Positions 1,827 through 31,284 of a stretch of 32,000 bases of DNA are shown here, one piece after another. Numbering within the stretch: position 1 is the first letter of the stretch; each line of letters opens with the position of its first letter. This DNA comes from Erysipelotrichaceae bacterium OH741_COT-311. GTDB taxonomy: Bacteria; Bacillota_I; Bacilli_A; Erysipelotrichales; Erysipelotrichaceae. The notes below the pieces were generated by a model. That model was not told the DNA's origin and did not search any database. It saw nothing but the letters and a program-made list of their open reading frames with translations. The DNA lies in assembly GCA_003858585.1 (NCBI GenBank), contig RQZE01000003.1, forward strand, positions 90,001-122,000. Reading direction: 5' to 3'. A program made the translations under genes and the position numbers.

Positions 1827-1897
1827 TACGATATTGTCACTTATACATGAAAAAAAGCAATATAAATGATATAATACTAATGTTTATGGAGGCCCGT

Positions 1898-7524: not shown

Positions 7525-7558
7525 AGTATAATAAAGTTTGTTATAAGTGGGTATAAAT

Positions 7559-7960
7559 ATGAACAAATTTTTAAAATACAAGGCTATTTTTATTTATATT
7601 GTATTTGGAGTCTTTACAACTCTTGTGAATTTTGCAGTTTATCACATCTTTACCAGAGTGATTCCTTTGCATATACAGCTTGCTAATGCAATCGCTTTTG
7701 TTTCGGCTGTCATGTTTGCATATGTTGTAAATAAACAATTTGTATTTGAACATAAAGACTATAAATTATCAACGATTCTAAAAGAACTATCCAAATTTTT
7801 CTCATTAAGAATATTGGGTTTAGTGTTTGAAGCTTTGGCACTACATATTTTTGTAACAATCTTACAGTTCCATGATGTTTTGGTAAAAGTCGTTGTTGCT
7901 ATATTTATTGTTGTGTTTAATTATATCATTAGTAAATTTTATGTTTTTAAGAAAGGGTGA
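7559..7960 (+). CDS. GtrA-family small membrane protein (putative lipid-linked sugar flippase component)
   Basis: 133 aa with 4 TM helices. Motifs FAYVVNKQFVFE and the C-terminal NYIISKFYVFKK are typical GtrA blocks. TATAAT at 7527-7532 lies just after the terminator. The track start 7547 (GTG) is less likely than ATG 7559. Confidence 0.8.
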   Translation: MNKFLKYKAIFIYIVFGVFTTLVNFAVYHIFTRVIPLHIQLANAIAFVSAVMFAYVVNKQFVFEHKDYKLSTILKELSKFFSLRILGLVFEALALHIFVTILQFHDVLVKVVVAIFIVVFNYIISKFYVFKKG

Positions 7961-7964
7961 GGGA

Positions 7965-8900
7965 ATGAGTGTTATTTCTATCGTAATACCAGCGTATAAT
8001 GAAGCTGAAAACATCCAAGAAATATATGAAAGAATTTCTAAAGAATTTTCAATGTTAAAGGAAGACTTTGAAGTTATTTTTGTGGATGATGGAAGTAAAG
8101 ATGAAACCTTCTTTAGAATTTCAACATTAACACTCAATCATAAAAATGTTATTGGTGTTAAATTTTCACGTAACTTTGGAAAAGAAGCTGCTATTTTTGC
8201 CGGACTTCATCAAGCAAGTGGCGATGCGACTATTGTCATGGATGCCGATATGCAACATCCTGTTACTTTACTTCATGATATGGTAGATAAATGGCAACAA
8301 GGGTATCTCATTGTAGAAGCTCGTAAAATGAAACGTCAAAATGAAAGTGCAATGTATCGTTTCTTTTCAAAACTGTTTTACAAAATATTAAATCGTATGG
8401 CTGGTATTGAGTTAAATAATCTATCTGATTTTAAGTTGTTAGATCGAAAAGCCTATCAAATGATTTCAAAGCTTACAGAAAAGCAAACCTTCTTTCGTGC
8501 TTTAAGTGGATGGATGGGTTATCGTACTTGTTTTATTGATTTTGAAGTAGCTGATCGTTTGCATGGTCAAACAAGTTGGTCGATGAAAGGTCTTTTTAAG
8601 TATGCCATCAATAACATTACGTCGTTTAGTTCATTGCCATTGCATTTGGTAACAGTAATGGGCTTTATCTTTTTTGTTTTCGCAATGCTTTTAGGGGTAC
8701 ATACCTTATATAACTATTTTGCAGGTGATGCGGTAAGTGGGTTTACGACTGTTATTTTAGTGTTGTTAATCTTGGGTGCTGTACTTATGACAGCTTTGGG
8801 AATTATTGGGCATTATTTGGCTAAAATTTATGATGAATTAAAAAATCGTCCTCGTTATATTATCGAAGAAATAAAAGGTGTAAACTATGGTGAAGATTAG
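7965..8900 (+). CDS. GT2 polyprenyl-phosphate glycosyltransferase (GtrB/CsbB-like)
   Basis: Motifs MSVISIVIPAYNEAENI, VIFVDDGSKDET, KFSRNFGKEAAIFAG and VMDADMQHP. The C-terminal TM pair ends LGIIGHYLAKIYDELKNRPRYIIEE. The upstream part of track ORF 7893.. overlaps GtrA and lacks an RBS. GTGAGGG lies before ATG 7965. Confidence 0.85.
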   Translation: MSVISIVIPAYNEAENIQEIYERISKEFSMLKEDFEVIFVDDGSKDETFFRISTLTLNHKNVIGVKFSRNFGKEAAIFAGLHQASGDATIVMDADMQHPVTLLHDMVDKWQQGYLIVEARKMKRQNESAMYRFFSKLFYKILNRMAGIELNNLSDFKLLDRKAYQMISKLTEKQTFFRALSGWMGYRTCFIDFEVADRLHGQTSWSMKGLFKYAINNITSFSSLPLHLVTVMGFIFFVFAMLLGVHTLYNYFAGDAVSGFTTVILVLLILGAVLMTALGIIGHYLAKIYDELKNRPRYIIEEIKGVNYGED

Positions 8901-15484: not shown

Positions 15485-15491
15485 ACTGAAG

Positions 15492-15533
15492 CAACAATGC
15501 ATGCTATTTATAACAAGTGACATTGTTGTTTTT
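15492..15533 (+). terminator. Possible intrinsic terminator (weak)
   Basis: CAACAATG (15492-15499) pairs with CATTGTTG (15521-15528), followed by TTTTT. The 21-nt loop is unusually large. Confidence 0.4.
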
Positions 15534-16365
15534 ATATTATACATGATAATATTTGAGAATAAAGTTTTCTCATTTAAGGTATAAACATAGCATTTTGTAA
15601 AAAAAAGTTAAACAAGATAAAACTTCAAAGGAAGAAACACCCAAAAAAGGAATTGTAACGTTTATATCGGCAAAGAAAGAGCCATAATGAATGATATTTT
15701 AATGATGAACGGATAATACTTATTTAAAGGATATGAAAATAAATTAAAATATCTTTGATACATTCCAACAGGTATAAACGATTCTTAAGTTGGAATAAGT
15801 TATCCAACTAAAAGTTAATGAAGCATATCAATAATTAAAGTTAGCTGATGAGAAGTTAAATGATGTTTCTTTAAAGAAAAATAGAATTCAAAAGATGTAA
15901 GTGTTCATAAACGATAACACATATTATAGGTTTACATAGTGAAGTTGGAAATACAGAAAACTATTTAGACCATATTGCTGTAAATGGAATTGAGATATAT
16001 TTACTTGATCATCAATATAGTTAAAAGATAAAAATTCAAGGTAACATTTCATTCTTTAAGTTGTATGCTGTTCTTTATTAACGGATGAGTTGGTTGAGAA
16101 TCGTAAGTTTGCAATTCGTGGATTTATTAAGCAAACTAATAGAGTAACAATTGAAAATATACAATTTGTAGATATTAACATTGAAAATACAAATACAGGA
16201 GAAAGTTTATAGGACTTACATACTTTAAAAACTTGCTAAGCAACAAGTGCAAACAATTTCTTGATACATTGAAGTAAAGTTTTAAATAATCATATTTAAG
16301 ATTTTTTCTTAGAAGTATAAAATTAAGGTTATTTTGGTATTTTAGTCGAATTAATATAGTAAAAA

Positions 16366-16374
16366 TGCTATAAT
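16366..16374 (+). promoter_or_regulatory. Extended -10 promoter element (TGCTATAAT)
   Basis: TGnTATAAT at 16366-16374 with no good -35. It lies only 17 nt upstream of the likely TTG start at 16391, so the leader would be very short. The same 11-mer ATGCTATAATT recurs at 27488-27498. Confidence 0.35.
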
Positions 16375-16390
16375 TTTTAAGGTGATTTAT

Positions 16391-18904
16391 TTGCGTAATA
16401 AGAAGTATTATTTAGCTACCATCCTTATTGTATGTATGTTTTTTTCATGGTTCCTTCTTTTTAATGACGGCATTTTTTTATTTGAAGGAGATATGCTTAC
16501 AGAAGGGTATAATTACTATGTGAAATTACATCAACAATTAAAAACGGGTGGTTTTACTTTTTGGAATGCTAATAACGTTTTAGGTGCCAATCAATATGGT
16601 AATTTAACGTATTTTGGATTAACCAGTCCTTATACATATCTTATTTTATTAGTACCTCATAAATCGTGGATATTACCTATGATTTTAATTAGCAATCTAG
16701 TAAAATCGCTTGTCCTTGCAAGTGGAGTATATCTATGGATGTATAAGCTTTATAAATCGCATCAGGCAAGTTTTATTGCTGCCATTATGTTAACGTTTAG
16801 TGGTTTTGTTGTAACAAACTATAACAATGATGTTATGCTGGCACCTCTTTCCTTTATGCCTTTTGTACTTTACTATACAGAAGAGTTGATTCAAAGAAAA
16901 AAAATTAATTTTAAACTAAGTATCTTTTTCGGCTTAGTTGTTTGTGCTAATTATTATTTTGCATACTTATTCCTACCATTTTTAGCCATTTACGCACTTG
17001 CTCGAGCATGTACACGTTATGGCTTTAAGTATAAGTTGCTTTTTGAGTTGGCGTATAAATGGATATTGGCTGTCGTAGTAGGTTTATTATTATCTATGTT
17101 TGTTCTTTATCCAAGTTATTTAGCCTTACAGGGGAATCCAAGAGTTACGTCATGGAAAGATGTACCTTTATGGATTAATAAGTATCAAATCTATCGCTTT
17201 ATTACAGGTTTCTTTAATCCGATTAATGATTGGCGTTTAAATAACAATTATTTTATAAGTACAGCTGTTGATGCAGGAATTGGTTATAGTGGAGGTATGG
17301 CTGTATACAGTTTTGTTCTTTTACCAATTGCAGTAGTGTTACTTTTGCAAATGAAGCGTAGTAAGGAACAAATCGCTATTTTAATCATGTATGGCTTATA
17401 TATGCTTTTTGTATTCATGCCAGTTTTTTATGTTTTATTTAATTTATCATTGGAAAGTCGTTGGATGTTTCATTTGTACTTTATCCACGCTTTAACGATT
17501 GGTTATATCTTTACACATCAAAATGAAATTCATACACGTAACATCCTTTTAACTTTTGTTCTAGTTGTACTTGCAGTAATTATCTTTTTAGGAATTAGTC
17601 ATCATTATCACTTCATAGTAGAACCATGGGCTTTCAAGATTGTCTTACGCAATAGTCTAATTTTCATCTTAATAGCTGCATTATATATGGCATATTTTAA
17701 AAAACCAATGGAATGGCTTATCATAGGAATTCTTGTGTTAGAAGTGATATTTACAGGATACAATGTATTTTATAATGATGGAAATAAATTAGATCCTATG
17801 AGTAAAGAAGAAGTCCTTGCATTAAACTTAGATAATAGTAAAGTCTTTGATACGATTAAAGCACAAGATCAAGATTTCTATCGTATAGATATGCATAGTC
17901 TTGATCCGTTAAGTGAAAATGAATCGAATGCCTATGATTATCATAGTTTTGTTGGTTATACTTCGACATATAATTTTAATCAACAAGATTTCAATACAAA
18001 TCGTTTTAAATTATCTTATATGATGTATTTTTATCCGCAATCTGGAAAAGGATTATTAAAAGATTTATTAAGCAATAAATACTTTATTCAAAGACATCAA
18101 CACGAATATCCACTTTCACACTATGAAGAGATATTAAAAGAAGACACACTTACAGTATATAAAAATAAGAATTTTCTACCATTTGCTTATTGTAAACCGG
18201 GTATTATAAATAAGAAACAGTTTGATAAACTTCCAATCTTAATTCAGGATTATCTTTTGGTCAATACCAATGTCATTGAAGATGGAAAGAATAATTATGA
18301 AATGATTACGGAATTAACTTTATTAGAAGACTCTATTACAACAGGGAGTGAGTTAGATTTAAGTGGTTTTAATAAGGGGTATTTATATGTTACCTTTGAT
18401 GGTTCTATTAATGTTGGATATTCTATGAAAGATGCACAAGGAAAAGAGTTAAGTTTTGGGTATTTTACAAAAGAGTTTTCTTATGTGGGGATTCCAATTG
18501 TAGAGAATGCTGCAAGTATTTATTTTACGGTAGAAGGGTATGCTAAGGTATATTATGATGATTTTATGTGGTATGAACCTTGGTATCAAAAAACAAAAGA
18601 ATGTTCTATTAAAAGTGAAGCGGTAAGTTCTGATTATTTAAGAGGTAGCATCGAAGTACCAAGTGATCAACTACTGGCGACAACCATTGCTTATGATGAT
18701 GGATGGAGCGTATATGTGGATCATAAAAAAGTAAAGTCTTATAAGGTAAATAATGGTTTTGTTGGTTTTTATTTACCAAAGGGAAAACATATCATTGAAT
18801 TAAAATATCGTTCGAGTGGATTTAAAGAAAGTATTTTAATTAGTACTCTGACATTATCGTTTATCGTATTTTATTCATGGAGGAAAAGAAGATGCAGATC
18901 ATAA
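16391..18904 (+). CDS. YfhO-family polytopic membrane glycosyltransferase (GT-C-like)
   Basis: About 837 aa. The N-terminal half is multi-TM, followed by an extracytoplasmic domain. C-terminus is IAYDDGWSVYVDHKKVKSYKVNNGFVGFYLPKGKHIIELKYRSSGFKES plus a final TM helix. AAGGTGA (16379-16385) favours TTG 16391 over the track GTG 16382. Confidence 0.85.
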   Translation: MRNKKYYLATILIVCMFFSWFLLFNDGIFLFEGDMLTEGYNYYVKLHQQLKTGGFTFWNANNVLGANQYGNLTYFGLTSPYTYLILLVPHKSWILPMILISNLVKSLVLASGVYLWMYKLYKSHQASFIAAIMLTFSGFVVTNYNNDVMLAPLSFMPFVLYYTEELIQRKKINFKLSIFFGLVVCANYYFAYLFLPFLAIYALARACTRYGFKYKLLFELAYKWILAVVVGLLLSMFVLYPSYLALQGNPRVTSWKDVPLWINKYQIYRFITGFFNPINDWRLNNNYFISTAVDAGIGYSGGMAVYSFVLLPIAVVLLLQMKRSKEQIAILIMYGLYMLFVFMPVFYVLFNLSLESRWMFHLYFIHALTIGYIFTHQNEIHTRNILLTFVLVVLAVIIFLGISHHYHFIVEPWAFKIVLRNSLIFILIAALYMAYFKKPMEWLIIGILVLEVIFTGYNVFYNDGNKLDPMSKEEVLALNLDNSKVFDTIKAQDQDFYRIDMHSLDPLSENESNAYDYHSFVGYTSTYNFNQQDFNTNRFKLSYMMYFYPQSGKGLLKDLLSNKYFIQRHQHEYPLSHYEEILKEDTLTVYKNKNFLPFAYCKPGIINKKQFDKLPILIQDYLLVNTNVIEDGKNNYEMITELTLLEDSITTGSELDLSGFNKGYLYVTFDGSINVGYSMKDAQGKELSFGYFTKEFSYVGIPIVENAASIYFTVEGYAKVYYDDFMWYEPWYQKTKECSIKSEAVSSDYLRGSIEVPSDQLLATTIAYDDGWSVYVDHKKVKSYKVNNGFVGFYLPKGKHIIELKYRSSGFKESILISTLTLSFIVFYSWRKRRCRS

Positions 18905-20505
18905 AGAAACTTTCATTAGTATACATTAGCGTATTTTTCTATACCATTGTGATCCAAAGTGGTATGTTTCTTTTTGATTTACCTTTAACACCAATTTCTC
19001 TATATTTAGCCTTTTTAGTAACCATCTTAGTGGATTATCTGTGGAATAAAAAACTAGATCGTAATCTTGTGTATGCTTGTTTGATTCTTGTTGTTTTGAT
19101 GTTGGTAGGAAGTCTTTACTATAGTCATTTTAATGAAACAACTTATGATGGAGCATTTTATCATGGTAATGCCATGGTTAACATGCTAAAAGGATGGAAT
19201 CCACATCTACAAGCGGGTATGCATAAAATTACAAAAGTAACAATATGGAGTGACTTTTATCCGAAAGCAACTTGGATATTTGGGGCAGTTTTAATCAAAC
19301 AGTTTCATCATTTATCTGTTCCTATGATGATTCCAACACTATTTGCGATGGCAAGTAGTTTCTATACCTGTCAATTTGTCTATAAGAAGACACGTAATTT
19401 AGTAGTATCAAGTATGCTTGCTCTTGTGGTTTTTGTAAATCCAATCACTATTCAACAATTTCAAACCTATTATGTAGATGGTATTTTAGGTAATGTTTTA
19501 TTAATGTTAATTCTATTTGGACTAGAAGCAATTGATCACTACGATTTGAAACAAAATTACTATATTTTACTTATCTCAGTGATTTTAATTAATATTAAGT
19601 TTACCGGATTTGGTTTTGCAGGCATCATTAACTTTGCTATATGGTTATATTTTTTATTAAAGAATCGCAAAGCTGCCATAACTTATACTCTTTTTGGGAT
19701 AGTGATGTTAGCTATTGCGATTGGTATTGTTGGCTATTCACCATATTTTTATAATTTAACGACAGGAAAACATATCTTTTTTCCGGTTGCCGGGAAAGAG
19801 GCGATTGATGTCATTAACTATTTAATACCGGAACAGCTTTTTGGTAAAAATCCAATTTATAAATTATACTATTCTTTATTTCAAGGGAAAGGGCTACTTA
19901 AAAATCTTTTTGATGTATCTGTAAACCGTTATTATTTTTATGATGAACAAATAGGAGCCTTTGGTACCTTTTTCTTTCGTTTAGCAGTACTTTCAGGTAT
20001 GGGTTATCTTATTTATTTTAAAAAAGCCTTTCAAGAAAAAACGTATCATTTAGGTTATCTTTTGGTATTTATAGGGTTTGTTGTCACGATTTTGATTAAC
20101 TATAAACATATATGGTGGTTCCGTTATGCTCCACAAATTTGGCTTTTCCTTCCTTTAGGTATGTATTATCTCTTTTTGCATCCGAAAGGTAAGTATGTAG
20201 CGTATTTAATGTTTGTAGTTATTTTACTTCAAAATGTATTGATGTATTCTTATACCTTACGTACAAATTTTGATAGATCGAATTCTATTATGAGTTTTTA
20301 TAGAAAATACCAAAATAAAACCATTGATATTACCATTAAAAATTTTGATGATACAGAAATATATTGGTTTGATACTTATGAAGCTTATAGAGGAAAACAA
20401 TTTCATGTAGATATTCATGAAATACTACATGAAGGAGCTTACAGCGATGAATGTTATCACATGCATGTCTACAAAGTTTGTGTTGTAAGAGAGCTTAAAA
20501 ACTAG
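18892..20505 (+). CDS. Uncharacterised polytopic membrane protein (about 13 TM helices), possible GT-C-like transferase
   Basis: 537 aa from ATG 18892, with GGAGGA at 18879-18884. Overlaps the YfhO stop by 13 nt. Hydrophobic throughout, with an early loop NETTYDGAFYHGNAMVNMLKGWNP and a short soluble C-terminus. I recognise no family motif. Confidence 0.5.
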   Translation: MQIIKKLSLVYISVFFYTIVIQSGMFLFDLPLTPISLYLAFLVTILVDYLWNKKLDRNLVYACLILVVLMLVGSLYYSHFNETTYDGAFYHGNAMVNMLKGWNPHLQAGMHKITKVTIWSDFYPKATWIFGAVLIKQFHHLSVPMMIPTLFAMASSFYTCQFVYKKTRNLVVSSMLALVVFVNPITIQQFQTYYVDGILGNVLLMLILFGLEAIDHYDLKQNYYILLISVILINIKFTGFGFAGIINFAIWLYFLLKNRKAAITYTLFGIVMLAIAIGIVGYSPYFYNLTTGKHIFFPVAGKEAIDVINYLIPEQLFGKNPIYKLYYSLFQGKGLLKNLFDVSVNRYYFYDEQIGAFGTFFFRLAVLSGMGYLIYFKKAFQEKTYHLGYLLVFIGFVVTILINYKHIWWFRYAPQIWLFLPLGMYYLFLHPKGKYVAYLMFVVILLQNVLMYSYTLRTNFDRSNSIMSFYRKYQNKTIDITIKNFDDTEIYWFDTYEAYRGKQFHVDIHEILHEGAYSDECYHMHVYKVCVVRELKN

Positions 20506-20530
20506 TAAAATAAAAAAGAGGTTTTGGATT

Positions 20531-21382
20531 ATGAAATACATTAAATTAATGCGTATCAAACACTATATAAAAAATATTCTTTTTGTCTTTATACCGTTAA
20601 TTTTCTCAATGAATTTTATGAACGTAGATCTGGTATTAACATCAATTTATGCCTTTGTGGCATTTAGCTTTAGTGCATCGATTGTCTATATTGTAAATGA
20701 TATCTTTGATGCAGAAAAAGATCGTCAACATCCAAAGAAAAAACATCGTCCAATCGCAAGTGGTCAAGTGGGTATTCCTCAAGCAATTGCTTTAGTGTGT
20801 TTATTGGTAATTGTAATTGTAGCGATGGTCGTTACATGTTTAAACGTTAAAACAGGTATTATTATTCTTATCTATGTGATTATGAATTTAGCTTATTCCT
20901 TTAAGTTAAAGCATGTTGTTTTAGTGGATGTCTTAATCATAGCGATAGGATTTATATTACGTATTTATGCTGGTGCTTATGCGATTGAAGTAGCTGTTTC
21001 TGAGTGGCTACTATTAACAGCTTTTGCAGTTTCTTTATTTCTGGGTTTTGGGAAGCGTTATGGTGAAAAAGCTAAAATTCAAGATGGAAACACACGTAAA
21101 GTTCTATCACAATATGATTCAGAATCATTAAAAATCTTTATTGTCATTTCAATGACATTAACGATTGTATTTTATTCGTTATATACGATTTTAGGAAATT
21201 CTAATCTAACAAATTCTATTTTTACCATTCCTTTGGTTGTGATAGGGATGTTTCGCTATTATATGTTGTTGGAAGGTAACATTAATGATGGAGATCCAAC
21301 AGAAGTGATTTTAAACGATCGTATTATTCAAATAATCGTCGTGGCTTATGCAACATTAGTACTACTATTGATGGGAGTGTAA
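20531..21382 (+). CDS. UbiA-family prenyltransferase with polyprenyl-phosphate 5-phosphoribosyltransferase (DPPR-synthase, Rv3806c-like) signature
   Basis: NDIFDAEKDRQHPKKKHRPIASGQ (20696..20767) and GFGKRYGEK...RKVLSQYDSESL match my memory of the DPPR-synthase branch (NDxxDxxxDRxHPxKxxRPxAxG ... GKRxxE ... RKxLxxY). 283 aa, multi-TM. AGAGG RBS. Confidence 0.7.
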   Translation: MKYIKLMRIKHYIKNILFVFIPLIFSMNFMNVDLVLTSIYAFVAFSFSASIVYIVNDIFDAEKDRQHPKKKHRPIASGQVGIPQAIALVCLLVIVIVAMVVTCLNVKTGIIILIYVIMNLAYSFKLKHVVLVDVLIIAIGFILRIYAGAYAIEVAVSEWLLLTAFAVSLFLGFGKRYGEKAKIQDGNTRKVLSQYDSESLKIFIVISMTLTIVFYSLYTILGNSNLTNSIFTIPLVVIGMFRYYMLLEGNINDGDPTEVILNDRIIQIIVVAYATLVLLLMGV

Positions 21383-21383
21383 T

Positions 21384-22622
21384 ATGAGAAAAATAAATGT
21401 TCGCAATATCCTCTTCAGTCTTTTTTTTATACTAGCTATTATAACAGTTGGACTTCTTGTGATTTTAAAGAAACCTGAGGCAATATCATTTATTGAAAAT
21501 CGAGTGTTACACCATTTTAAAGAACCAACAGTAGAAACGGTTATGGATGGTAGTTTTCAAGAAAATACGGAACATTCCTTTGCAGATCAATTTCTCTATC
21601 GCAAAGAGCTATTTCAAATCATGGATAAAACCAATAATCTGCTAAGAGCGGCTATCCGTTTTGGTGTTGGTGAAGATTCTATGACGTTGGTAAGTATTAG
21701 TGATAATGGAATCTTTAAGGTTGGTCCACATGGGTCAACATTGGTTGAATTTCCATTTATGAAAACAGATGAACAGGATGCACAGTTAATGGCAAGAATC
21801 GATAACTATAATGCCATTGCTGAAAAATACCCTGATATTAAGTTTTATATTTATCGAGTAACAAATGCTAGAGATACAAATTGGTTTGATGAAGCGAATG
21901 AAATATGGTCTTCAGGAAGTCATTACAGTCAATGGTTACAGGATAATATTAATCCTGCTATTACATATCAAGAATTACAATTTGAAAACTATGAAAGTTA
22001 TAAAAAAGAAACGTATAAAACAGATCATCATTTAAATGTGTTTGGAAATTATCGTTTTTATGAAGAAATCATTGCTATGCTTCAAAAAGATTTTTCTTTA
22101 GAAAACCCTAAGGAGCCCATTGATATGTTTGAAGCTCCGGTAAAATTCTATGGCTCTTTAGTCAAGAAAGCAAACTTTAATTTTGATGATAAAGTATATG
22201 ATACTGTTTCTGATTTTGTTTATGAATTAGCGCCTTGTAAAGTTCAAGTAAATGGTGAAGAAGTAAAAGAGTTTGGTCGTCGTCAAGAATATATGAATCA
22301 TCAAAACATTGATGAGACAAAAGGGACAAATCACTACCGTGAGCTATTTGGAAAAGATTCATTTGAAGTCATTTATGAATGTGGAAATTCCAATGGGATA
22401 AATGCATTAATTATTTCTGATTCTTATACCAATGCGATAAAGCCTGTATTATCTTCACATTTTAATAAAGCCATCTATATTGATCCACGTCAACCTTCTT
22501 TAGATGGTGATTATTTCAATATGAAAAATTATATTGAACAACATAACATCAATCTTGTATTATTTGTAGGAAGTTATTATACCGTTTATATGGATGAACC
22601 ATATTTAATTGCTTATTATTAG
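21384..22622 (+). CDS. DHHW-family / AlgJ-AlgX-like membrane-anchored protein (putative extracytoplasmic O-acyltransferase component)
   Basis: N-terminal TM anchor. YKTDHHLNVFGNY (DHH at 22023..22031) and a later LIISDSYTNAIKP block resemble the D-x-H and Ser blocks of SGNH-like AlgJ/AlgX/PatB enzymes. Located upstream of an MBOAT gene. Confidence 0.7.
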   Translation: MRKINVRNILFSLFFILAIITVGLLVILKKPEAISFIENRVLHHFKEPTVETVMDGSFQENTEHSFADQFLYRKELFQIMDKTNNLLRAAIRFGVGEDSMTLVSISDNGIFKVGPHGSTLVEFPFMKTDEQDAQLMARIDNYNAIAEKYPDIKFYIYRVTNARDTNWFDEANEIWSSGSHYSQWLQDNINPAITYQELQFENYESYKKETYKTDHHLNVFGNYRFYEEIIAMLQKDFSLENPKEPIDMFEAPVKFYGSLVKKANFNFDDKVYDTVSDFVYELAPCKVQVNGEEVKEFGRRQEYMNHQNIDETKGTNHYRELFGKDSFEVIYECGNSNGINALIISDSYTNAIKPVLSSHFNKAIYIDPRQPSLDGDYFNMKNYIEQHNINLVLFVGSYYTVYMDEPYLIAYY

Positions 22623-22631
22623 GAGATAGTT

Positions 22632-23837
22632 GTGAGTAAACAAAGAAATTTAGTTTTTTCTATCTTATTTTGTGCTTTTCTTACATGTGTAGGTTTCTAT
22701 GTTATGTTTGTAAAGAAACCAACCAAACGTCTTAGTATGGATTTAAGAAATGCCGTAACCTTTATTAAACCCAGTGTTCAAAATGTAAAAGAAGGATTTT
22801 TTCAGGATACCTTTGAAAAAGCCTTTCAAGATCAATTTGTAAAACGTCAAACAATGATACAGGTCTATCGATTTATAGAACATCAATTGTATAAGGCATC
22901 TATGTTACAACCAAAGGATTATACATTGGTAAAAATTGGAAGTGATGTCTATACATTTAAGGCGAATGAAGATTATTTGGTAGGTTGGCCCATTGTCAAA
23001 AATGATGACTATCAACAAGGGATTGCATCCTTTAGTGAGAATGTGAATGCGATTTCCAAAGCTTATCCGGATGTTAATTTTTATGTGTATAAGCCATTTC
23101 GTATTACAGAGTCCAATTGGTTTGATAAGGATAATGGCTTTACATCTTATGGAACGTATTATAGAGATTTATTAAAGGCAAATTTACATAATCAAATTCT
23201 ATTTTTAGAAAATAAGATTGAAGACTTTGAAGAATATAAAAAATATTATTTTAAAACCGATCCACATTGGAATATTTATGGATCTTATGAAGGATATAAA
23301 GTGTTTTGTAATGCGTTAAATCATCATTATAAAGATATTACATGTCAACAATATGATAGTGAGTATATCTTTGAGGATTTTGCTTATTATGGTCAATATG
23401 GTCGCAATTCAAGCTATTTAACTTCACCAGATCAATTCATCGATTTAAATTTTAATCAGTTACCAGGTTATAAAACGTATGTCAACGGTGTTGAAAAAAA
23501 ATATGATCAAAAAGATGAGTTTAAAAAAGGGGAAGTCGAAGAATTCTTTTGGAGCTATATCTATAGTGTGTACCATGGAAATGATGAAGCTTTGGTTGAA
23601 TATCAAATGGATCAGCAAACAGGTCGAGTATTACTTTGTTTTGTGGATAGTTATTCAAGTCCAATTAAATTTCTTATTGCTTCACATTTCGATCATGCTT
23701 ATTTTGTTGATCCAAGAATTAATCCGGATTTTAATTTTAAAACCTTCATGGAAGAACATCGTGTAACCGATGTTATGTATATGGGCTTTTATGGTTCATT
23801 GTATCAAGATAAAAGTTATATCTTTGAAGAATATTAA
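22632..23837 (+). CDS. DHHW-family / AlgJ-AlgX-like membrane-anchored protein, paralogue of 21384..22622
   Basis: GTG start after AGGAG. N-terminal TM anchor. FKTDPHWNIYGSY (23259..23270) and CFVDSYSSPIKF. Architecture is collinear with the preceding gene. Confidence 0.7.
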   Translation: MSKQRNLVFSILFCAFLTCVGFYVMFVKKPTKRLSMDLRNAVTFIKPSVQNVKEGFFQDTFEKAFQDQFVKRQTMIQVYRFIEHQLYKASMLQPKDYTLVKIGSDVYTFKANEDYLVGWPIVKNDDYQQGIASFSENVNAISKAYPDVNFYVYKPFRITESNWFDKDNGFTSYGTYYRDLLKANLHNQILFLENKIEDFEEYKKYYFKTDPHWNIYGSYEGYKVFCNALNHHYKDITCQQYDSEYIFEDFAYYGQYGRNSSYLTSPDQFIDLNFNQLPGYKTYVNGVEKKYDQKDEFKKGEVEEFFWSYIYSVYHGNDEALVEYQMDQQTGRVLLCFVDSYSSPIKFLIASHFDHAYFVDPRINPDFNFKTFMEEHRVTDVMYMGFYGSLYQDKSYIFEEY

Positions 23838-23856
23838 TTAGGAAGGAGAAGAATTT

Positions 23857-25263
23857 ATGTTATTTAGTAGTTTAACATTTCTATTTGCGTTTTTACCACT
23901 TGTATTCATTATTTACTACATCATTCCTAATCGATACCTTCGTAATGTAGTACTGTTATTGTTTTCACTGGGGTTTTATTCATGGGGAGAGCCATCATAT
24001 ATTGTATTGATGTTATTTAGTTTAGTATTTAACTATAGCTTTGTATTAGTATTTGATTACTGTAAACATAAACATAATATCGTTTTAGCAAGAGTCATCT
24101 TTGTGCTCACTATTATGGTAAATTTAGGACTTTTGGGTTATTACAAATATGCTGCTTTCCTTATTGGGAATATTAATTTTATGTTTAAAACCAATTTACC
24201 ATTGGTGAAAGTGGCGTTACCGATAGGGATTAGTTTCTATACGTTCCAAATTTTAAGTTATGTCGTAGATGCATATTATGGAAAAGTAAAAGTACAAAAA
24301 GATTTTGTTTTATTAAGTACGTATGTAGCACTATTTCCACAACTGATTGCAGGACCAATTGTTCGTTATCAAACCATTGAAGATGAATTACTAAATCGTA
24401 AAGAAAACATCAATGATGTAGCCAACGGAATACGTCGCTTTATCATTGGGTTAGGAAAAAAAGTTATTTTGGCAAATCAAGCTGGTTTGATTGCAGATAC
24501 CATTATCAATCAAAGTAACTATGTAGGGTTTTCACTGGCTTGGGTAGGGATCTTGGCATACAGTTTGCAGATTTACTTTGATTTTAGTGGCTATAGTGAT
24601 ATGGCGATTGGTCTAGGAAAAGTCTTTGGTTTCCATTTCTTAGAAAACTTTAATTATCCCTATATTGCTTCAAGCATTACAGACTTCTGGCGCCGCTGGC
24701 ATATGTCTTTAAGCACATGGTTTAAAGACTATGTTTATATACCATTAGGTGGTAATCAAGTAAAAGCATATCGTTGGTATATCAATATCTTCATTGTTTG
24801 GTTTTTAACAGGTATGTGGCATGGTGCAACGTGGAACTTTATTATTTGGGGTTTATATTTCTGTATCATTTTGATTATTGAAAAGATTATCATGCTAAAA
24901 GTCCTTAAACATGTTCCAGATTTCTTCCGTCATATCTATGCTTTATTTTTTATTGTATTGGGTTGGGTTATTTTCCGAATTGAAGATCCAACAAAAATGA
25001 TACAGTATTTTAAAACACTATTTGGTATGAACGGGAACAATAGTATTAAGGCATTTTATCACTTAGAGATTGCTCACTTATTTCCATACTTACTTTTAGG
25101 TATGCTTGGTGCAACACCATTGGTAGGAGTTATTCTTAAGAAAATGAATAAACATACCCTTACAGGTATGTTGTTGGATGTATATTTATTAGGTGTCTTT
25201 GTAGTATGTATCATCTTCTTAGTAAATAGCTCTTATAATCCGTTTATCTACTTTAGATTTTAA
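23857..25263 (+). CDS. MBOAT-family membrane-bound O-acyltransferase (AlgI/DltB/PatA-like)
   Basis: Motifs ISFYTFQILSYVVDAYYGK, FPQLIAGPIVRY and FWRRWHMSLSTWFKDYVYIPLGGN (conserved His block). 468 aa, multi-TM. GGAAGGAG RBS. Confidence 0.9.
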   Translation: MLFSSLTFLFAFLPLVFIIYYIIPNRYLRNVVLLLFSLGFYSWGEPSYIVLMLFSLVFNYSFVLVFDYCKHKHNIVLARVIFVLTIMVNLGLLGYYKYAAFLIGNINFMFKTNLPLVKVALPIGISFYTFQILSYVVDAYYGKVKVQKDFVLLSTYVALFPQLIAGPIVRYQTIEDELLNRKENINDVANGIRRFIIGLGKKVILANQAGLIADTIINQSNYVGFSLAWVGILAYSLQIYFDFSGYSDMAIGLGKVFGFHFLENFNYPYIASSITDFWRRWHMSLSTWFKDYVYIPLGGNQVKAYRWYINIFIVWFLTGMWHGATWNFIIWGLYFCIILIIEKIIMLKVLKHVPDFFRHIYALFFIVLGWVIFRIEDPTKMIQYFKTLFGMNGNNSIKAFYHLEIAHLFPYLLLGMLGATPLVGVILKKMNKHTLTGMLLDVYLLGVFVVCIIFLVNSSYNPFIYFRF

Positions 25264-25264
25264 A

Positions 25265-25288
25265 GCGAATCATTGGATTCGTTTTTTT
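25265..25288 (+). terminator. Rho-independent terminator of the YfhO-UbiA-MBOAT operon
   Basis: CGAATC (25266-25271) pairs with GATTCG (25276-25281), loop ATTG, followed by T7 (25282-25288). It overlaps the last codons of the convergent - strand gene. Confidence 0.75.
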
Positions 25289-27405
25289 GTTTTATAAAGA
25301 ATAAAGATAAATACATTAAGACTTAAAAGAGATAAAATACTTCCAAGTAGGAATCCTCTTGGTATAAAGGAAAGATGAATTTCATGATTGCCTTCTAAAA
25401 CATCAAAACCTAAGAATCCCTGATCGTTTGTTATGGTTTGTTTTTGGTGATTGATGGTTAATGACCATCCGGCATCATAAGCAATCGGTAAGGTAATGTG
25501 CTTGGCTTTTGATGTTAGGGTTGCGTAAATATGATTATCTTTCAATTCACTTATTTCTAATGGGAATGGTTTAGCGCCATGGTCTATATAAATAGAATAG
25601 TCATTGATGTTTGTTAAAAATTCAAATTTACTATCTTTTGTTAAATCATACATTCCTTTACTATAACGAGGTTGTCCTAAACTAAAGTTTGGTTGTTTTA
25701 CCATATAGTACTTAAAACCTAGTTGACGTAACAGATCAATATCTTGAATATCTAATTGCCAAGTAGTCCATGTGATGTTTAGCTTATCTCTGATAAATGG
25801 AAGAATATCAAATTGATACAAGGAATCATACGTATAGGCAGATTTAAAATCATAGTAGAGATTTACATTAAATGGCATTGGAGCATTAACATCTGTATAA
25901 GGAATATATATACGGTAGAATTGATGTTTATTTTCCAAACCTTTGATATAGTCAATTGCTTTGTTATCTAGTGTTTGATCGAATTCAAATTTCTGAAAGT
26001 CCGGATAACGATGTAATGTTTTTCTAGCTCCATAGCTAACTTCAAATAGTAAAACACCAACTAACAGTAAATAACTATATTTGTGTTTCAAAGATAAAAG
26101 AATGGTATATAGGACAATGAAGCCTAAGGCTAGAAGTAATCCATTGTATTCCGGTTTTAAATGATCCCAAATAACATCATAACGTTTTATTGCATAAAAG
26201 CGTAAGCCAAGAATGATAATACTTAAAATACCTGCTGTTACATATAACCATTTTCTATTTATTGGTTGTTTTAAAACATACATAAGAGCAATAATCATAG
26301 AAGCGATATAGACCAATGTCCAACGGAAAGTTGGTTCTTTTAGACCATGCATCATACTTGCACCATACGGTGTTAATAGAAATATTAGTAAGATACCAAG
26401 TAAACTACTAAGAGCAATACGTTCTTTCTTATTCTTTAATAAAAGAACTTGTGGAAGTAATAATATGGTAAATACAGAGGAGTAAAGAGTTAATTGGTTG
26501 GTTGAATAGTCTGTTGTGTTAAATAACATATGGCCAAGTTCACTGACTTGATAAGGTGCTATAAAGAGTTTTACCAGCATATCAAAGTAGATAAAGGTTG
26601 GATTGTATTTTTTTGTTAAAAGGAAAGATCCGCTTATACGAGGTGATTTCACGAGGTGTAATATCGCTGGGATAATCATAAAGCTTGCCATAAGGACACC
26701 AAGAAGATAAAAACCAATCAGTATTAAAGTATCCATGACATAGTTCTTAAACTGAAATTCTTTTACCATGTAGTAACGAATTGTCCAGTAAAAAGTTAAG
26801 AAAATAGATGTTGTGAAGAAGAAGTAATAATTGGATAAAAGAAGCAGAAAGATAGAAAACGTAAACCATGTATACTTCTTGTTTATTAAAACAGATTCAA
26901 TCCCAATAAATAGTAAAGGTAGTAAGGTATGCCATATTAAAAACATTGGATGTTCCGCAAATAAAGTGGCCCATCCACAGAAGGTATATAGTAAAACACC
27001 AAGTATGCGATGCTTCAAAGAACATTGTAGTTGAATTAAAAAATGATTGAACAAAATTCCGGCTATCAAGAATTTTAAGATATAAGTAACTAGCATTGCC
27101 AAAATTAGGTGTGAACTTGGAAACAGTAAGGTGATATAACTAAAGGGATCTCCTAAAATATAGTAGGCTTTACTTGCCCAGAAGTTAGTACCTAAAAAGA
27201 AATTATGAGACCAAAAGGGAAGTTGTCCACTATGTAGTAAACGGTGAAAATCCTTATAAAAAAATAAATGTTGATACTGAAAGTCATAACCTAAAACAAA
27301 CTTAAGTTGTTTGGTTAAATATGGTAAAAATACTAGGACTACAGCTAAACATAAAATAGCGTACAGATATTTGTTTTCTATAAGATAGGTCTTAATTTTT
27401 TTCAT
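25270..27405 (-). CDS. YfhO-family polytopic membrane glycosyltransferase (GT-C-like)
   Basis: 711 aa. N-terminal multi-TM domain (..FWSHNFFLGTNFWASKAYYILGDPFSY..). C-terminus is IAYDAGWSLTINHQKQTITNDQGFLGFDVLEGNHEIHLSFIPRGFLLG plus a terminal TM helix and KKR. GGTGAT RBS before the ATG. Confidence 0.85.
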   Translation of the reverse strand: MKKIKTYLIENKYLYAILCLAVVLVFLPYLTKQLKFVLGYDFQYQHLFFYKDFHRLLHSGQLPFWSHNFFLGTNFWASKAYYILGDPFSYITLLFPSSHLILAMLVTYILKFLIAGILFNHFLIQLQCSLKHRILGVLLYTFCGWATLFAEHPMFLIWHTLLPLLFIGIESVLINKKYTWFTFSIFLLLLSNYYFFFTTSIFLTFYWTIRYYMVKEFQFKNYVMDTLILIGFYLLGVLMASFMIIPAILHLVKSPRISGSFLLTKKYNPTFIYFDMLVKLFIAPYQVSELGHMLFNTTDYSTNQLTLYSSVFTILLLPQVLLLKNKKERIALSSLLGILLIFLLTPYGASMMHGLKEPTFRWTLVYIASMIIALMYVLKQPINRKWLYVTAGILSIIILGLRFYAIKRYDVIWDHLKPEYNGLLLALGFIVLYTILLSLKHKYSYLLLVGVLLFEVSYGARKTLHRYPDFQKFEFDQTLDNKAIDYIKGLENKHQFYRIYIPYTDVNAPMPFNVNLYYDFKSAYTYDSLYQFDILPFIRDKLNITWTTWQLDIQDIDLLRQLGFKYYMVKQPNFSLGQPRYSKGMYDLTKDSKFEFLTNINDYSIYIDHGAKPFPLEISELKDNHIYATLTSKAKHITLPIAYDAGWSLTINHQKQTITNDQGFLGFDVLEGNHEIHLSFIPRGFLLGSILSLLSLNVFIFILYKTKKRIQ

Positions 27406-27519: not shown

Positions 27520-29379
27520 ATGAAAAAGAAATTATTAAATCATGTGCATATTTTAGTGTTACCATTTTACTTTGTAATAAGTGATGCGTTAGTCCGCATG
27601 TTTGCAGGACTAAGGCTTTTTTCACCGCGTGCTATTGCGTTTTCTTATTTCATAGGCTTATTTTTTAGTAGTCTATCTTTATTGTTAAAAGAAAAAGGAC
27701 AAAAGATTTATTTGTCTATTGTTTTTGTTATTTCGACGTTAGTTGCGTTTAGTCAAAGTTTATACTTTAATTTTTATACTGACTTTTATTCTTTTAATAA
27801 GTTAAGTAATATCAAAGAGTTTTTAGCCGTAAAAGGGGAAACTAGCAAGGCATTTCATATGCAATATTTGCTTTATTTTGTACTGTTAGTGTTTATGATT
27901 GGATGGATTATAAAGATGCACGTTCCAATCCACAATAAAAAACATAAAATACAGCTTGTGTTAGGTTTCGTGCTTTTTGCATTGCTCGGGTATCACTCTG
28001 TTAAGTTCACATTTATAAATAATATGCTTGATTCTACTCAGGTGTATTTAACGGATGATTATTTATATAAGACGTTATATTCGCATCAAAAGGCTGTTGA
28101 GCGTTTTGGTGTCTTTACTCATGCCAATCGTGATTTATTGCGTATTGCAAAGACGTATCTTCAAAAAGCGGATCCAAAAGAGGTAAAAAGAATTGAAGAG
28201 TATTTTGCAAAACATCAACGTGAAAAACAGCATAACGCTATGACAGGCTTATTTGAAAATAAAAATATTGTCTTGATTTTAGCAGAAAGTTTAGACCCAT
28301 GGGGGATTCATCAAGAGATTACACCAACACTTTATAAGATGAAACAAGAAGGAATTTATTTTGAAAATTATTATGCACCAATGTTTAATGCAAGTACCAT
28401 TGATGCTGAATTTATGGTAAATACAGGCTTAGCACCTTCTTTGGAATCTGGTAATACAGCCTATGTCTTTAGTGGTAACACCTTTCCATTATCACTAGCA
28501 AATTTATTTAAGAAGAAGGGTTATAGCGCAAATAGTTATCACAATAGTATTGGTTCTTTTTATAATCGCTATCAGTTTCATGAAGCGCTTGGCTTTAGTG
28601 AGTTTTATGATTCCATCAAGTTAGACATTGAAACACCGAAAAACTTCGGTTATAACTGGGCACTTGATTACGATTTATTTGATAAGGCAAGTGACATTAT
28701 TTTAAAACAGTCTCGTCCTTTCTTTTCTTATTTAATTACGGTAAGTATGCATACTCCATATGATGAAAATCGAATTGCTTTAAAAAAGAATTATGAATAT
28801 GTATCAAAAATTTTACCAAATGAAGACAGTCAAATTATTTATTATTTAGCAGCTGGTAAAGACTTAGATGATGGATTGGAGTTATTCCAAAAAAGACTTG
28901 CAGAAGAAGGGATTTTAGATGATACGGTCTTTGTTGTTTTTGGAGATCATTATTCTTATGGTATGCATCATGATATTATTTGGACTTACGATTTAGATAC
29001 AAAAGGAGATTTTTATAATCTTAAGAAAGTTCCTTTATTAATCTGGACACCAAATATGCAAGGACAAAAGATTAGTGAAATTGCAGGGCAATTTGAAGTG
29101 TATCCAACCCTTGCGAATATGTTTAATTTGGAGTTTAATCCGACTTATAATTTTGGGAATGATATATTTAATGAAGATGAAAATATTGTTGTCTATGGTT
29201 CAAAGAGTATTTGGCGTGATAAAAACTTAGTGTATGATACAGGTAGCATTGGTGCTAAGTATGTAGAGGATGCGGATGAATCTTACATCTTTGAACGAAA
29301 TAGTTACGTGATTGAGCGTTTAAATATGTTTCAAAAAATCTTAGAACAAGATTACTTTAAGGAATTTAAGGGAGAATAA
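27520..29379 (+). CDS. LtaS-family (sulfatase / alkaline-phosphatase superfamily) membrane phospho-transferase, lipoteichoic-acid-synthase-like
   Basis: About 5 N-terminal TM helices followed by an extracytoplasmic domain. That domain carries IVLILAESLDPWG (metal Glu block), FNASTIDAEFMVNTGL (catalytic Thr block, cf. TxDAEF in LtaS) and VVFGDHYSYG (DH block). Confidence 0.75.
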   Translation: MKKKLLNHVHILVLPFYFVISDALVRMFAGLRLFSPRAIAFSYFIGLFFSSLSLLLKEKGQKIYLSIVFVISTLVAFSQSLYFNFYTDFYSFNKLSNIKEFLAVKGETSKAFHMQYLLYFVLLVFMIGWIIKMHVPIHNKKHKIQLVLGFVLFALLGYHSVKFTFINNMLDSTQVYLTDDYLYKTLYSHQKAVERFGVFTHANRDLLRIAKTYLQKADPKEVKRIEEYFAKHQREKQHNAMTGLFENKNIVLILAESLDPWGIHQEITPTLYKMKQEGIYFENYYAPMFNASTIDAEFMVNTGLAPSLESGNTAYVFSGNTFPLSLANLFKKKGYSANSYHNSIGSFYNRYQFHEALGFSEFYDSIKLDIETPKNFGYNWALDYDLFDKASDIILKQSRPFFSYLITVSMHTPYDENRIALKKNYEYVSKILPNEDSQIIYYLAAGKDLDDGLELFQKRLAEEGILDDTVFVVFGDHYSYGMHHDIIWTYDLDTKGDFYNLKKVPLLIWTPNMQGQKISEIAGQFEVYPTLANMFNLEFNPTYNFGNDIFNEDENIVVYGSKSIWRDKNLVYDTGSIGAKYVEDADESYIFERNSYVIERLNMFQKILEQDYFKEFKGE

Positions 29380-29380
29380 G

Positions 29381-30313
29381 ATGAAGAAGTTTAAACAGAT
29401 ATTATCACTTATTATTCTTATAGAAGTAGTTGTCATTGTTGTTATTTCTTTTGCAATTAAAGAAGATCGTAAAAAGAAACAAGCTGAACTGGCAAGTCTT
29501 TGGTTTAATCAATATCATGTAGTAGCCCATGCGATGGGCTCTATTGATCAGTATCCTTACACCAATTCTTTGGAGGCATTTTATGCCAATTATGAAAAAG
29601 GGACTCGTGTATTTGAGGTGGATTTTGGTTTAACAAGTGATCAACATTTAGTGCTGACACATGGCTGGCTCGAGCATAAACAGCAACGTTTAGGTATGTT
29701 GCAGGCAGATGCATTACCAATGAGTTTACAGGAATTTAAAGAGCAAAAGATCTATGGTCAATATACACCGTTGGATGTAAAGGACTTAATGAATCTCATG
29801 CATCAATATCCGGATATTTATGTCATTTTAGATTGGGGGAAACAGTTGGATTGGGATGAAGAGGCAAAAGTGGATCATATCTTTGATATTGAGCAATTAA
29901 TTGCGTTAAATCAACAACTAATCAATGAATTTAAGCAGGAAGATGAAACTTTATTACAACGTGTGATTCCTCAAATTTATTATGAAGATCATTATTATCG
30001 TTTGCATGAAGTATATCCATTTAAACATTACATTTATACATTATATAAAAATTACGATAAAACCAACGCACGTAAAGTAATGCAGTTTATTACTAAGAAT
30101 AAGATTGATGTGGTTACAAGTAATCTTTATGGGAAACAAGCTATGATTACTTCAGAAATAAAACGACAAATTAACTTAGATCGCACAACAAAGGCGTCGA
30201 TGGCAGTGTTTTTACATACGATTAATAACCTTGAAGAAGCTAAAAAATACATAGAAGAAGGATATAAAGGTATGTATAGTGATGGATTAAGTGAAGCGGA
30301 TATGAAGGAATAG
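29381..30313 (+). CDS. Membrane-anchored GDPD / PLC-like phosphodiesterase family protein
   Basis: N-terminal TM helix. VVAHAMGS..YTNSLEAFYANYEKGTRVFEVDFGLTSDQHLVLTHGW is collinear with the GDPD pattern (HRG..ENTLxAF..G.D.IExDV..T.D..vV.HD), but HAMG replaces HRG. Confidence 0.55.
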   Translation: MKKFKQILSLIILIEVVVIVVISFAIKEDRKKKQAELASLWFNQYHVVAHAMGSIDQYPYTNSLEAFYANYEKGTRVFEVDFGLTSDQHLVLTHGWLEHKQQRLGMLQADALPMSLQEFKEQKIYGQYTPLDVKDLMNLMHQYPDIYVILDWGKQLDWDEEAKVDHIFDIEQLIALNQQLINEFKQEDETLLQRVIPQIYYEDHYYRLHEVYPFKHYIYTLYKNYDKTNARKVMQFITKNKIDVVTSNLYGKQAMITSEIKRQINLDRTTKASMAVFLHTINNLEEAKKYIEEGYKGMYSDGLSEADMKE

Positions 30314-31275: not shown

Positions 31276-31284
31276 GAGGTTATT

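Follow-up and report, generated by a model that had tools for sequence, protein, structure and literature searches.

Which membrane enzyme would use the product of a UbiA-superfamily protein that is encoded beside two other polytopic proteins in a Firmicute genome? We addressed this question in a 32,000-nucleotide stretch of Erysipelotrichaceae bacterium OH741_COT-311 (contig RQZE01000003.1, positions 90,001 to 122,000; G+C about 30%), hereafter the window, whose positions are counted from its first letter. An array of six + strand genes at 16391..25263 begins with genes for a YfhO-type glycosyltransferase, a membrane protein without annotation that we call X, and UbiA. A preliminary description of this DNA had suggested that UbiA makes a lipid-linked (phospho)pentose from 5-phosphoribosyl 1-pyrophosphate (PRPP) and that YfhO and/or the unknown polytopic protein transfers it to a wall polymer. 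From the analyses below, we consider it rather probable that UbiA, X and a HAD::GtrA fusion protein make up an extracytoplasmic pentofuranosylation system like those that Kelly et al. described, with X as the proposed transferase.

UbiA belongs to the phosphoribosyltransferase branch

The 283-amino-acid UbiA protein (20531..21382, + strand; PF01040, 5e-24) is a predicted UbiA-superfamily polyprenyl-phosphate 5-phosphoribosyltransferase of the PPPRS/DPPRS type. UbiA reaches 228, 205 and 172 bits against the NCBIfam models for decaprenyl-phosphate phosphoribosyltransferase, with NF008977 at 227.9 bits, and at most 51 bits against any quinone, heme or lipid prenyltransferase model. When we searched PDB sequences, we found that UbiA residues 4-276 match residues 18-294 of Mycobacterium tuberculosis Rv3806c (8j8j) with an E-value of 1.7e-42 and that the next family, classical UbiA (4od4), follows at 5e-4. 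The AlphaFold model of UbiA (pLDDT 91.5) has TM-scores of 0.87 to 8j8j and 0.86 to 8j8k, and its second-best fold is DGGGP synthase with a TM-score of 0.70.

The structure of Rv3806c has provided a list of the residues that contact the Mg2+, ribose, 5'-phosphate and pyrophosphate of PRPP, and its phosphoribose-binding residues are not conserved among ordinary UbiA enzymes (PMC10994848). In the HMMER alignment, Rv3806c residues R22, K28, Y70, N73, D77 and K87 correspond to R8, K14, Y53, N56, D60 and K70 of the window protein, and R90, Q135, Y138, K143, Y157 and K208 correspond to R73, N119, Y122, K127, F141 and K190. Ten of the 12 PRPP and Mg2+ contacts are therefore identical, and the two replacements (Q135 to N and Y157 to F) are conservative. 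Across 36 UbiA homologues, the ten contacts from R8 to K127 show no variation and F141 shows almost none; K190 belongs to neither group. The placement of this protein in the Rv3806c branch, which the preliminary description had based on a pair of motifs (both are present), is thus supported by the NCBIfam scores, the match to 8j8j, the PRPP contacts and the modelled fold. A quinone, heme or archaeal-lipid prenyltransferase was considered and rejected on the scores, the substrate-contact residues and the fold. UbiA is a member of the phosphoribosyltransferase branch typified by Rv3806c and, judging from its sequence, its most plausible role is to provide an extracytoplasmic enzyme of the glycosyltransferase C (GT-C) class with a lipid-linked pentofuranose donor.

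Protein X is an unannotated membrane protein with a modelled GT-C fold

The gene for X (542 amino acids; 18877..20505, + strand, with an alternative start at 18892) lies between those for YfhO and UbiA. X has no match in Pfam or NCBIfam, and its profile has none among PDB sequences. A word-index homologue search found 21-22 relatives, every one labelled "hypothetical", and an exhaustive profile search found 4,034 representatives at 50% identity, 2,141 of them at or below 1e-30. Ten sampled members of the family gave no significant Pfam match to any glycosyltransferase family. Because there are 4,034 representatives and the sampled members lack a glycosyltransferase match in Pfam, the X family is large and unannotated. 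The X protein of the window is 98% identical to that of the metagenome-assembled genome (MAG) Erysipelotrichaceae bacterium S17M_Sa_23.

We modelled X with AlphaFold2 from 20 homologues (pLDDT 86.6, pTM 0.90). When the model was compared with the PDB by Foldseek, each of the best 28 matches was a GT-C protein, among them PglB, STT3, ArnT, AftA, DPY19, EmbA/B/C, PMT, ALG3/9 and the GPI-transamidase subunit PIG-U. The Foldseek probability is at least 0.87 in all 28 and 0.99-1.00 in the best 17, with TM-scores of 0.24-0.43. The modelled fold of X is thus a GT-C fold. Six of 42 diverse family members match PMT_2 weakly, and 11 residues are invariant among the 42 (D91, Y95, P189, Q194, D201, K241, P303, G363, W413, R416 and P419). 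The K/R-rich loops put the N-terminus and the 58-61 loop of X on the inner side in the predicted topology, and D91 follows the third N-terminal helix in a loop that faces outward by the positive-inside rule. D91 would be the likely catalytic acid. On the basis of the model, we propose that X is a polyprenyl-phosphate-pentofuranose:glycan transferase. By hhalign, X is related neither to YfhO (probability 1.4%) nor to the 523-amino-acid protein encoded at 1847..3418.

Among the X-family members encoded with no UbiA gene nearby are a 754-amino-acid protein (L047 4060..6324) on a contig assigned to a methanogenic Methanobacteriaceae archaeon and a protein of almost equal length in a Melainabacteria MAG (L040); binning error or horizontal transfer could explain these occurrences.

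UbiA genes lie beside X genes in many phyla

To survey the neighborhood of X, we ran the X profile against one genome per species, retained the best 80 of 406 loci, and searched six-frame open reading frames (ORFs) around X with purpose-built HMMs. We found a phosphoribosyltransferase-type UbiA gene in 46 of these 80 X-seeded loci, from many phyla; it is at most 2.5 kb from X in 43 of them and at most 100 bp away in 23. When X was flanked by at least 5 kb on each side, UbiA was present in 35 of 52 loci. The linkage is seen across most X subclades and in five of five loci in the subclade of the window, where the gap between X and UbiA is 25 nt.

Some of these loci are compact cassettes. In Brevibacillus, the cassette consists of UbiA (270 bits, above the NCBIfam cutoff), an ArnE/F-like small transporter, a divergent PAP2 protein and X; in Paenibacillus validus, of UbiA, an SMR-type transporter and X; in Pelosinus, of UbiA, PAP2 and X; and in Solibacillus, of UbiA, HAD::GtrA and X. 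Among the larger loci, the Holdemania-like L003, L004 and L008 keep X, UbiA, DHHW, DHHW, MBOAT, YfhO (- strand), LtaS, GDPD and HAD::GtrA, and are otherwise syntenic with the window except that the YfhO gene upstream of X is missing.

We also collected 80 metagenome loci seeded on UbiA. Here the further neighbors of UbiA include unannotated polytopic proteins, Acyl_transf_3 proteins, sulfatase-type genes and SDR (short-chain dehydrogenase/reductase) epimerases. A cassette in the exopolysaccharide cluster of the Lactococcus cremoris dairy plasmid pF27D (L167, NZ_CP068515.2, 7596..10715) encodes, in this order, a 462-amino-acid hypothetical polytopic protein, a decaprenyl-phosphate phosphoribosyltransferase, a HAD-IB phosphatase and GtrA. 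The 462-amino-acid protein was considered as a member of the X family and rejected. Its own family recurs next to UbiA in L033 and L144 and is for that reason a second unannotated candidate partner of UbiA.

A HAD::GtrA fusion probably supplies the phosphatase and the flippase

Downstream of the array, the window encodes a HAD-IB phosphatase::GtrA fusion protein (30322..31275, + strand; PF12710 and PF04138) with DFDKT, a DxDxT motif, at residues 5-9. We found seven full-length HAD::GtrA homologues in the collected loci, of which six directly adjoin UbiA (L012, L018, L080, L086, L125 and L144). A HAD gene adjoins UbiA in 13 of the 46 X-seeded loci that have UbiA and in 17 of the 80 UbiA-seeded loci. 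HAD and GtrA also occur as separate neighboring genes after UbiA in L129, L163 and pF27D, and the window HAD domain is 51% identical to the HAD-IB protein of pF27D (2e-60). It gave no match, at an E-value of at most 0.001, to NF006088, the one HAD::UbiA fusion model in NCBIfam. Because its homologues are linked to UbiA in other genomes, HAD::GtrA is probably the 5'-phosphatase and the flippase for the UbiA product.

These assignments suggest the following route. At the cytoplasmic face, UbiA would move ribose-5-phosphate from PRPP onto polyprenyl phosphate, presumably the C55 carrier (C55-P), as its homology and contact residues indicate. The HAD domain would then take off the 5'-phosphate, the fused GtrA domain would flip polyprenyl-P-ribofuranose to the outer face, and X would attach the pentofuranose to a glycopolymer of the wall or the membrane.

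Several Bacilli MAGs (L025 7751..9838, L051, L052, L063 and L032) encode, beside X and UbiA, proteins of about 690 amino acids in which a HAD-IB domain at the N-terminus is followed by a long region that matches no Pfam family. A further type of phosphatase fusion may be represented by these proteins.

The proposed system resembles and differs from characterized pathways

The mycobacterial decaprenyl-phosphoarabinose pathway consists of Rv3806c, the PAP2-type protein Rv3807c, DprE1/E2, Rv3789 and the Aft/Emb GT-C enzymes. The UbiA protein of the window is a full-length homologue of Rv3806c in which the PRPP contacts are kept, and the logic of dephosphorylation, flipping and GT-C transfer would be shared; the PAP2-type phosphatase of the Brevibacillus cassette is like Rv3807c. 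Unlike the mycobacterial pathway, the window has no DprE1/DprE2, hence arabinose is without support; its proposed phosphatase is of the HAD and not the PAP2 type; the carrier is presumably C55 rather than C50; and the sequence of X is not detectably similar to Aft or Emb proteins. To our knowledge, extracytoplasmic pentofuranose addition was known mainly from mycobacteria before 2024.

Kelly et al. (PNAS 2024) demonstrated experimentally that alpha-pentofuranose side chains are added outside the cytoplasm by three components, namely a UbiA-type polyprenyl phosphoribose synthase that carries a fused HAD phosphatase, a flippase of small size, and a GT-C enzyme that founds family GT136; in Citrobacter youngae O1/O2 the system is ORF15/ORF14/ORF12 (PMC11127046). 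An SDR leads to xylofuranose (Xylf) and DprE1/E2 homologues lead to arabinofuranose (Araf), some systems have several GT-C enzymes, and the uncharacterized candidate loci that are listed include those of the Gram-positives Bacillus sp. NP157 and Rathayibacter (PMC11127046). The preliminary description knew of no account of such a combination in Firmicutes; the general PRPP-fed three-component scheme fits the window, but it was already established in 2024 with Gram-positive candidates (PMC11127046).

In common with those systems, the window has a UbiA-type phosphoribosyltransferase that would use PRPP, a proposed HAD-family 5'-phosphatase, a proposed small flippase and a GT-C protein that would act outside the membrane; optional epimerases determine the identity of the pentose in the systems of Kelly et al. 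The functional residues D31/Y35 and R349/Y350 of ORF12 (GT136) resemble the invariant D91/Y95 and R416/Y417 of X, with a similar spacing of 318 versus 325 residues, which is a lead toward a possible relationship. In contrast to those systems, in which the HAD phosphatase is joined to the UbiA enzyme and the flippase is ArnE/F-like, the window has its HAD domain joined to a GtrA-type flippase, and this HAD::GtrA gene is split off, 9 kb from UbiA and X. Its GT-C protein, X, is matched by neither Pfam nor NCBIfam and lacks an annotation like that of a carbohydrate-binding module, and its host is a Firmicute without O antigen, where the wall context is LtaS-like, GDPD and MBOAT/DHHW genes. Relative to what Kelly et al. 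described, the window thus differs in the family of its proposed transferase, in the fusion of HAD with a flippase, in the separation of its genes and in their setting among wall genes of a Firmicute.

The same architecture of a lipid-linked monosaccharide donor, a GtrA-type flippase and a GT-C enzyme is found in CsbB/GtcA/YfhO and GtlA/GtlB, which glycosylate teichoic acids in Firmicutes (PMC5836110, PMC8035078), and in PgfS/PgfM1/PgfM2 of S. mutans. YfhO, GtrA and PgfS-type GT2 genes of such Firmicute systems all occur in the window; however, the donor synthase considered here is a PRPP-dependent UbiA protein and not a nucleotide-sugar-dependent GT2, and its conserved GT-C partner is X rather than YfhO.

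Pentofuranoses (ribofuranose, Araf, Xylf) displayed on the surface of bacteria serve as antigenic determinants that are foreign to the host. The window and about 80 related loci suggest that a PRPP-fed route is common in Firmicutes, where its carriers are gut Erysipelotrichaceae and Bacilli MAGs, Brevibacillus, Paenibacillus, Solibacillus and a Lactococcus exopolysaccharide plasmid, and they would pin the transferase role on a specific unannotated GT-C family. They also suggest an annotation rule, in which a phosphoribosyltransferase-branch UbiA is sought together with HAD or PAP2, with GtrA or an ArnE/F-like protein, and with X, and they make tractable organisms available for testing whether teichoic acids or wall polysaccharides are pentofuranosylated. 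A more far-reaching reading, which we hold tentatively and with some doubt, is that X could be the founder of a large, hitherto unrecognized glycosyltransferase family apart from GT136 and YfhO, one that uses polyprenyl-phosphate-pentofuranose donors to decorate polysaccharides of the lipoteichoic-acid-like or wall type, in many other phyla as well as in Firmicutes, and that HAD::GtrA physically couples 5'-dephosphorylation of the lipid-linked sugar to flipping.

Alternative transferases and the identity of the pentose

Several findings weigh against a pentofuranosylation system made up of UbiA, X and HAD::GtrA. UbiA scores slightly under two NCBIfam equivalog cutoffs (227.9 versus 234 for NF008977 and 205 versus 207 for NF008978); the Brevibacillus UbiA protein from an X cassette clears that of NF008977 (270 versus 234). 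Between X and solved GT-C structures, even the best TM-scores reach a modest 0.37-0.43. Within the flanks covered, 34 of the 80 X-seeded loci are without UbiA, and so some X members may use donors other than the UbiA product. In the opposite direction, X occurs in only three of the 80 UbiA-seeded metagenome loci, from which it follows that UbiA pairs with several GT-C families, X being one. The 9-kb distance of HAD::GtrA from UbiA is a further point, as is the PgfS-type GT2 gene (31282.., 258 bits) that directly follows it; because of this position, the GtrA part of the fusion could serve the GT2 instead. Finally, the overlap of the YfhO and X genes is compatible with both GT-C enzymes sharing one donor.

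That overlap, of 13-28 nt within one transcription unit, is also part of the case for the idea that YfhO (16391..18904) transfers the lipid-linked (phospho)pentose made by UbiA, by itself or with X, which we consider quite improbable. YfhO is a bona fide GT-C enzyme by Pfam, and Kelly et al. reported several GT-C enzymes per system (PMC11127046). However, when we looked for YfhO in the collected loci by phmmer with three window seeds, a search that a strongly divergent YfhO could escape, we found it near X and UbiA in the two nearest relatives (L007 and L008) and in none of the other 78 X-seeded or the 80 UbiA-seeded loci, and the upstream gene is missing from the otherwise syntenic L003, L004 and L008. 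The window also offers other donors. As the preliminary description had noted, there is no GT2 gene inside the operon, though elsewhere in the window (4532..5467, 5467..6402, 7893..8900 and 31282..32000) are four GT2 genes of the GtrB/ArnC/PgfS type, whose products have two transmembrane helices each at the C-terminus, and three of the four proteins match PgfS strongly. These four are equalled in number by four other polytopic candidates, namely three YfhO proteins and the protein of 1847..3418, so that UbiA and X are left as a pair, an argument from parsimony. More likely, the upstream YfhO uses a hexose-type C55-P-sugar from one of the window GT2 enzymes, and it is probably not core to the pentose module. 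The suggestion that YfhO is the conserved partner of UbiA is therefore not borne out, and of the two transferases put forward in the preliminary description, the polytopic protein X is the better candidate by its GT-C fold and its linkage to UbiA. It is very improbable, in our estimate, that X is instead a polymerase, ligase or transporter of a polysaccharide pathway and that the UbiA product is used by an enzyme encoded elsewhere. Such a role would suit the lack of a sequence match between X and characterized families, the X loci that have no UbiA nearby, and the O-antigen-ligase-like gene that shares many X clusters; but GT-C proteins take all 28 top places among the structural matches of X and no Wzy, WaaL or transporter fold ranks above them, the invariant Asp is, as in GT-C enzymes, in a loop that faces outward, and in the minimal cassettes of Brevibacillus and Solibacillus, which consist of UbiA, a flippase, a phosphatase and X, the sole transferase candidate is X.

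If UbiA, the HAD::GtrA protein and X do act together, the sugar that they add depends on whether the donor is epimerized. Our scan of window ORFs of at least 100 amino acids found no DprE1/DprE2-like gene, as had been stated before, and no FAD_binding_4/ALO (DprE1) or SDR domain. Since no DprE1/E2 or SDR gene was recognized in the window, the sugar is probably ribofuranose. We think it unlikely that enzymes of a non-DprE kind, encoded in or outside the window, epimerize the donor before transfer so that arabinofuranose or xylofuranose is added. In favor of epimerization, a DAO-type FAD oxidoreductase gene (3418..4545) and the overlapping GT2 gene (4532..5467) are conserved, at 524 and 224 bits, beside X and UbiA in Erysipelotrichaceae UBA8511, where the locus (L001/L010 3933..8560) also has an SDR gene and a TIM-barrel epimerase-like (IolO-like) gene; UbiA is flanked by SDR epimerase genes in six metagenome loci; and Xylf in C. 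youngae O2 is made by an SDR (PMC11127046). Going by these sequences, the DAO, SDR and TIM-barrel genes could be a non-DprE epimerization route for a lipid-linked pentose. Against it stand, besides the domain scan of the window, the distance of 14 kb between the DAO gene and UbiA in the window, the absence of the DAO gene from the other 70-plus X loci, and the lack of a tie between this gene and any lipid-linked substrate. The DAO-type oxidoreductase was rejected as a general substitute for DprE1, its linkage to X and UbiA being confined to Erysipelotrichaceae.

Genes possibly linked to the acceptor polymer and its acylation

LtaS-like (sulfatase-domain) and GDPD genes are present in the window at 27520..30313 as part of the conserved block, and LtaS-like genes abut X-family genes in the unrelated loci L018, L039, L072 and L092, which hints at a lipoteichoic-acid-like (glycerol-phosphate polymer) acceptor. 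An O-antigen-ligase-like gene occurs in many of the X clusters. Because LtaS-like, GDPD, MBOAT/DHHW and O-antigen-ligase-like genes flank the module, we favor a lipoteichoic-acid-like polymer or a wall polysaccharide as the acceptor.

Three genes follow UbiA in the array, all on the + strand. The first encodes a DHHW-family protein with a single N-terminal transmembrane anchor (21384..22622; PF14286, 2.7e-6), the second a paralogue of it (22632..23837; 30% identity, E-value 7e-52), and the third an MBOAT (DltB/AlgI-like) membrane O-acyltransferase (23857..25263; PF03062, 9.2e-25; TIGR04091, 3e-44, below cutoff). A DHHW gene is kept downstream of UbiA in L003, L004, L007 and L008, and the DHHW protein presumably partners the MBOAT O-acyltransferase on the extracytoplasmic side. 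Some X homologues (P0016, 921 amino acids; P0178, 1062 amino acids) carry a fused Acyl_transf_3 domain, and in 11 metagenome loci (L146-L166) UbiA is flanked by paired Acyl_transf_3 genes. From these fusions, these gene pairs and the DHHW/DHHW/MBOAT genes after the window module, pentose addition and polymer O-acylation appear to travel together.

Organization of the array and other genes in the window

The window also contains two more YfhO genes (18..1097 and, on the - strand, 25270..27405), a GtrA gene apart from the fusion (7547..7960) and a gene for a DegT aminotransferase (6405..7499). The 523-amino-acid polytopic protein of 1847..3418 has about ten transmembrane helices and no Pfam or NCBIfam match; it may be a further unannotated GT-C-like transferase. 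In L014, L016 and L067, genes for its homologues have ArnC-like GT2 genes as neighbors. The four GT2 genes, the four polytopic candidates other than X, the GtrA gene and the DegT gene suggest that the locus has several parallel systems for decoration with lipid-linked sugars.

The first gene of the array (16391..18904, + strand; PF09586, 2.8e-69) has a TTG start at 16391, which is preceded by AGGTG at 16380-16384, six bases upstream, and an alternative start at 16382. The start of X at ATG 18892 agrees with the 537-amino-acid homologue P0001, and the overlap between YfhO and X is 28 nt if X starts at the first ATG (18877). With starts at TTG 16391 and ATG 18892, the six + strand genes are as tightly packed as the preliminary description had reported, with a 13-nt overlap followed by gaps of 25, 1, 9 and 19 nt. 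Its 0.9-kb ORF-free spacer in front of the array likewise holds: 15485..16390 is 906 nt (+ strand) without an ORF of at least 60 amino acids and is presumed to be the promoter region. Promoter-like sites, which are matches to consensus only, lie in it at 16261-16290 and 16296-16323. Rfam gave no match in the window, including this spacer, and a riboswitch or leader RNA in the spacer is thus unsupported.

The hairpin and T-run that had been described as closing the array are also present, as an intrinsic terminator at 25262..25295 (+ strand) with a stem of 10 pairs (25262..25285) and then TTTGTTTTAT. The hairpin starts at the MBOAT stop codon and extends over the final codons of the converging YfhO gene (25270..27405). 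Because the terminator overlaps the stop of this gene and the two stop codons are 6 nt apart, one hairpin probably serves both convergent transcripts.

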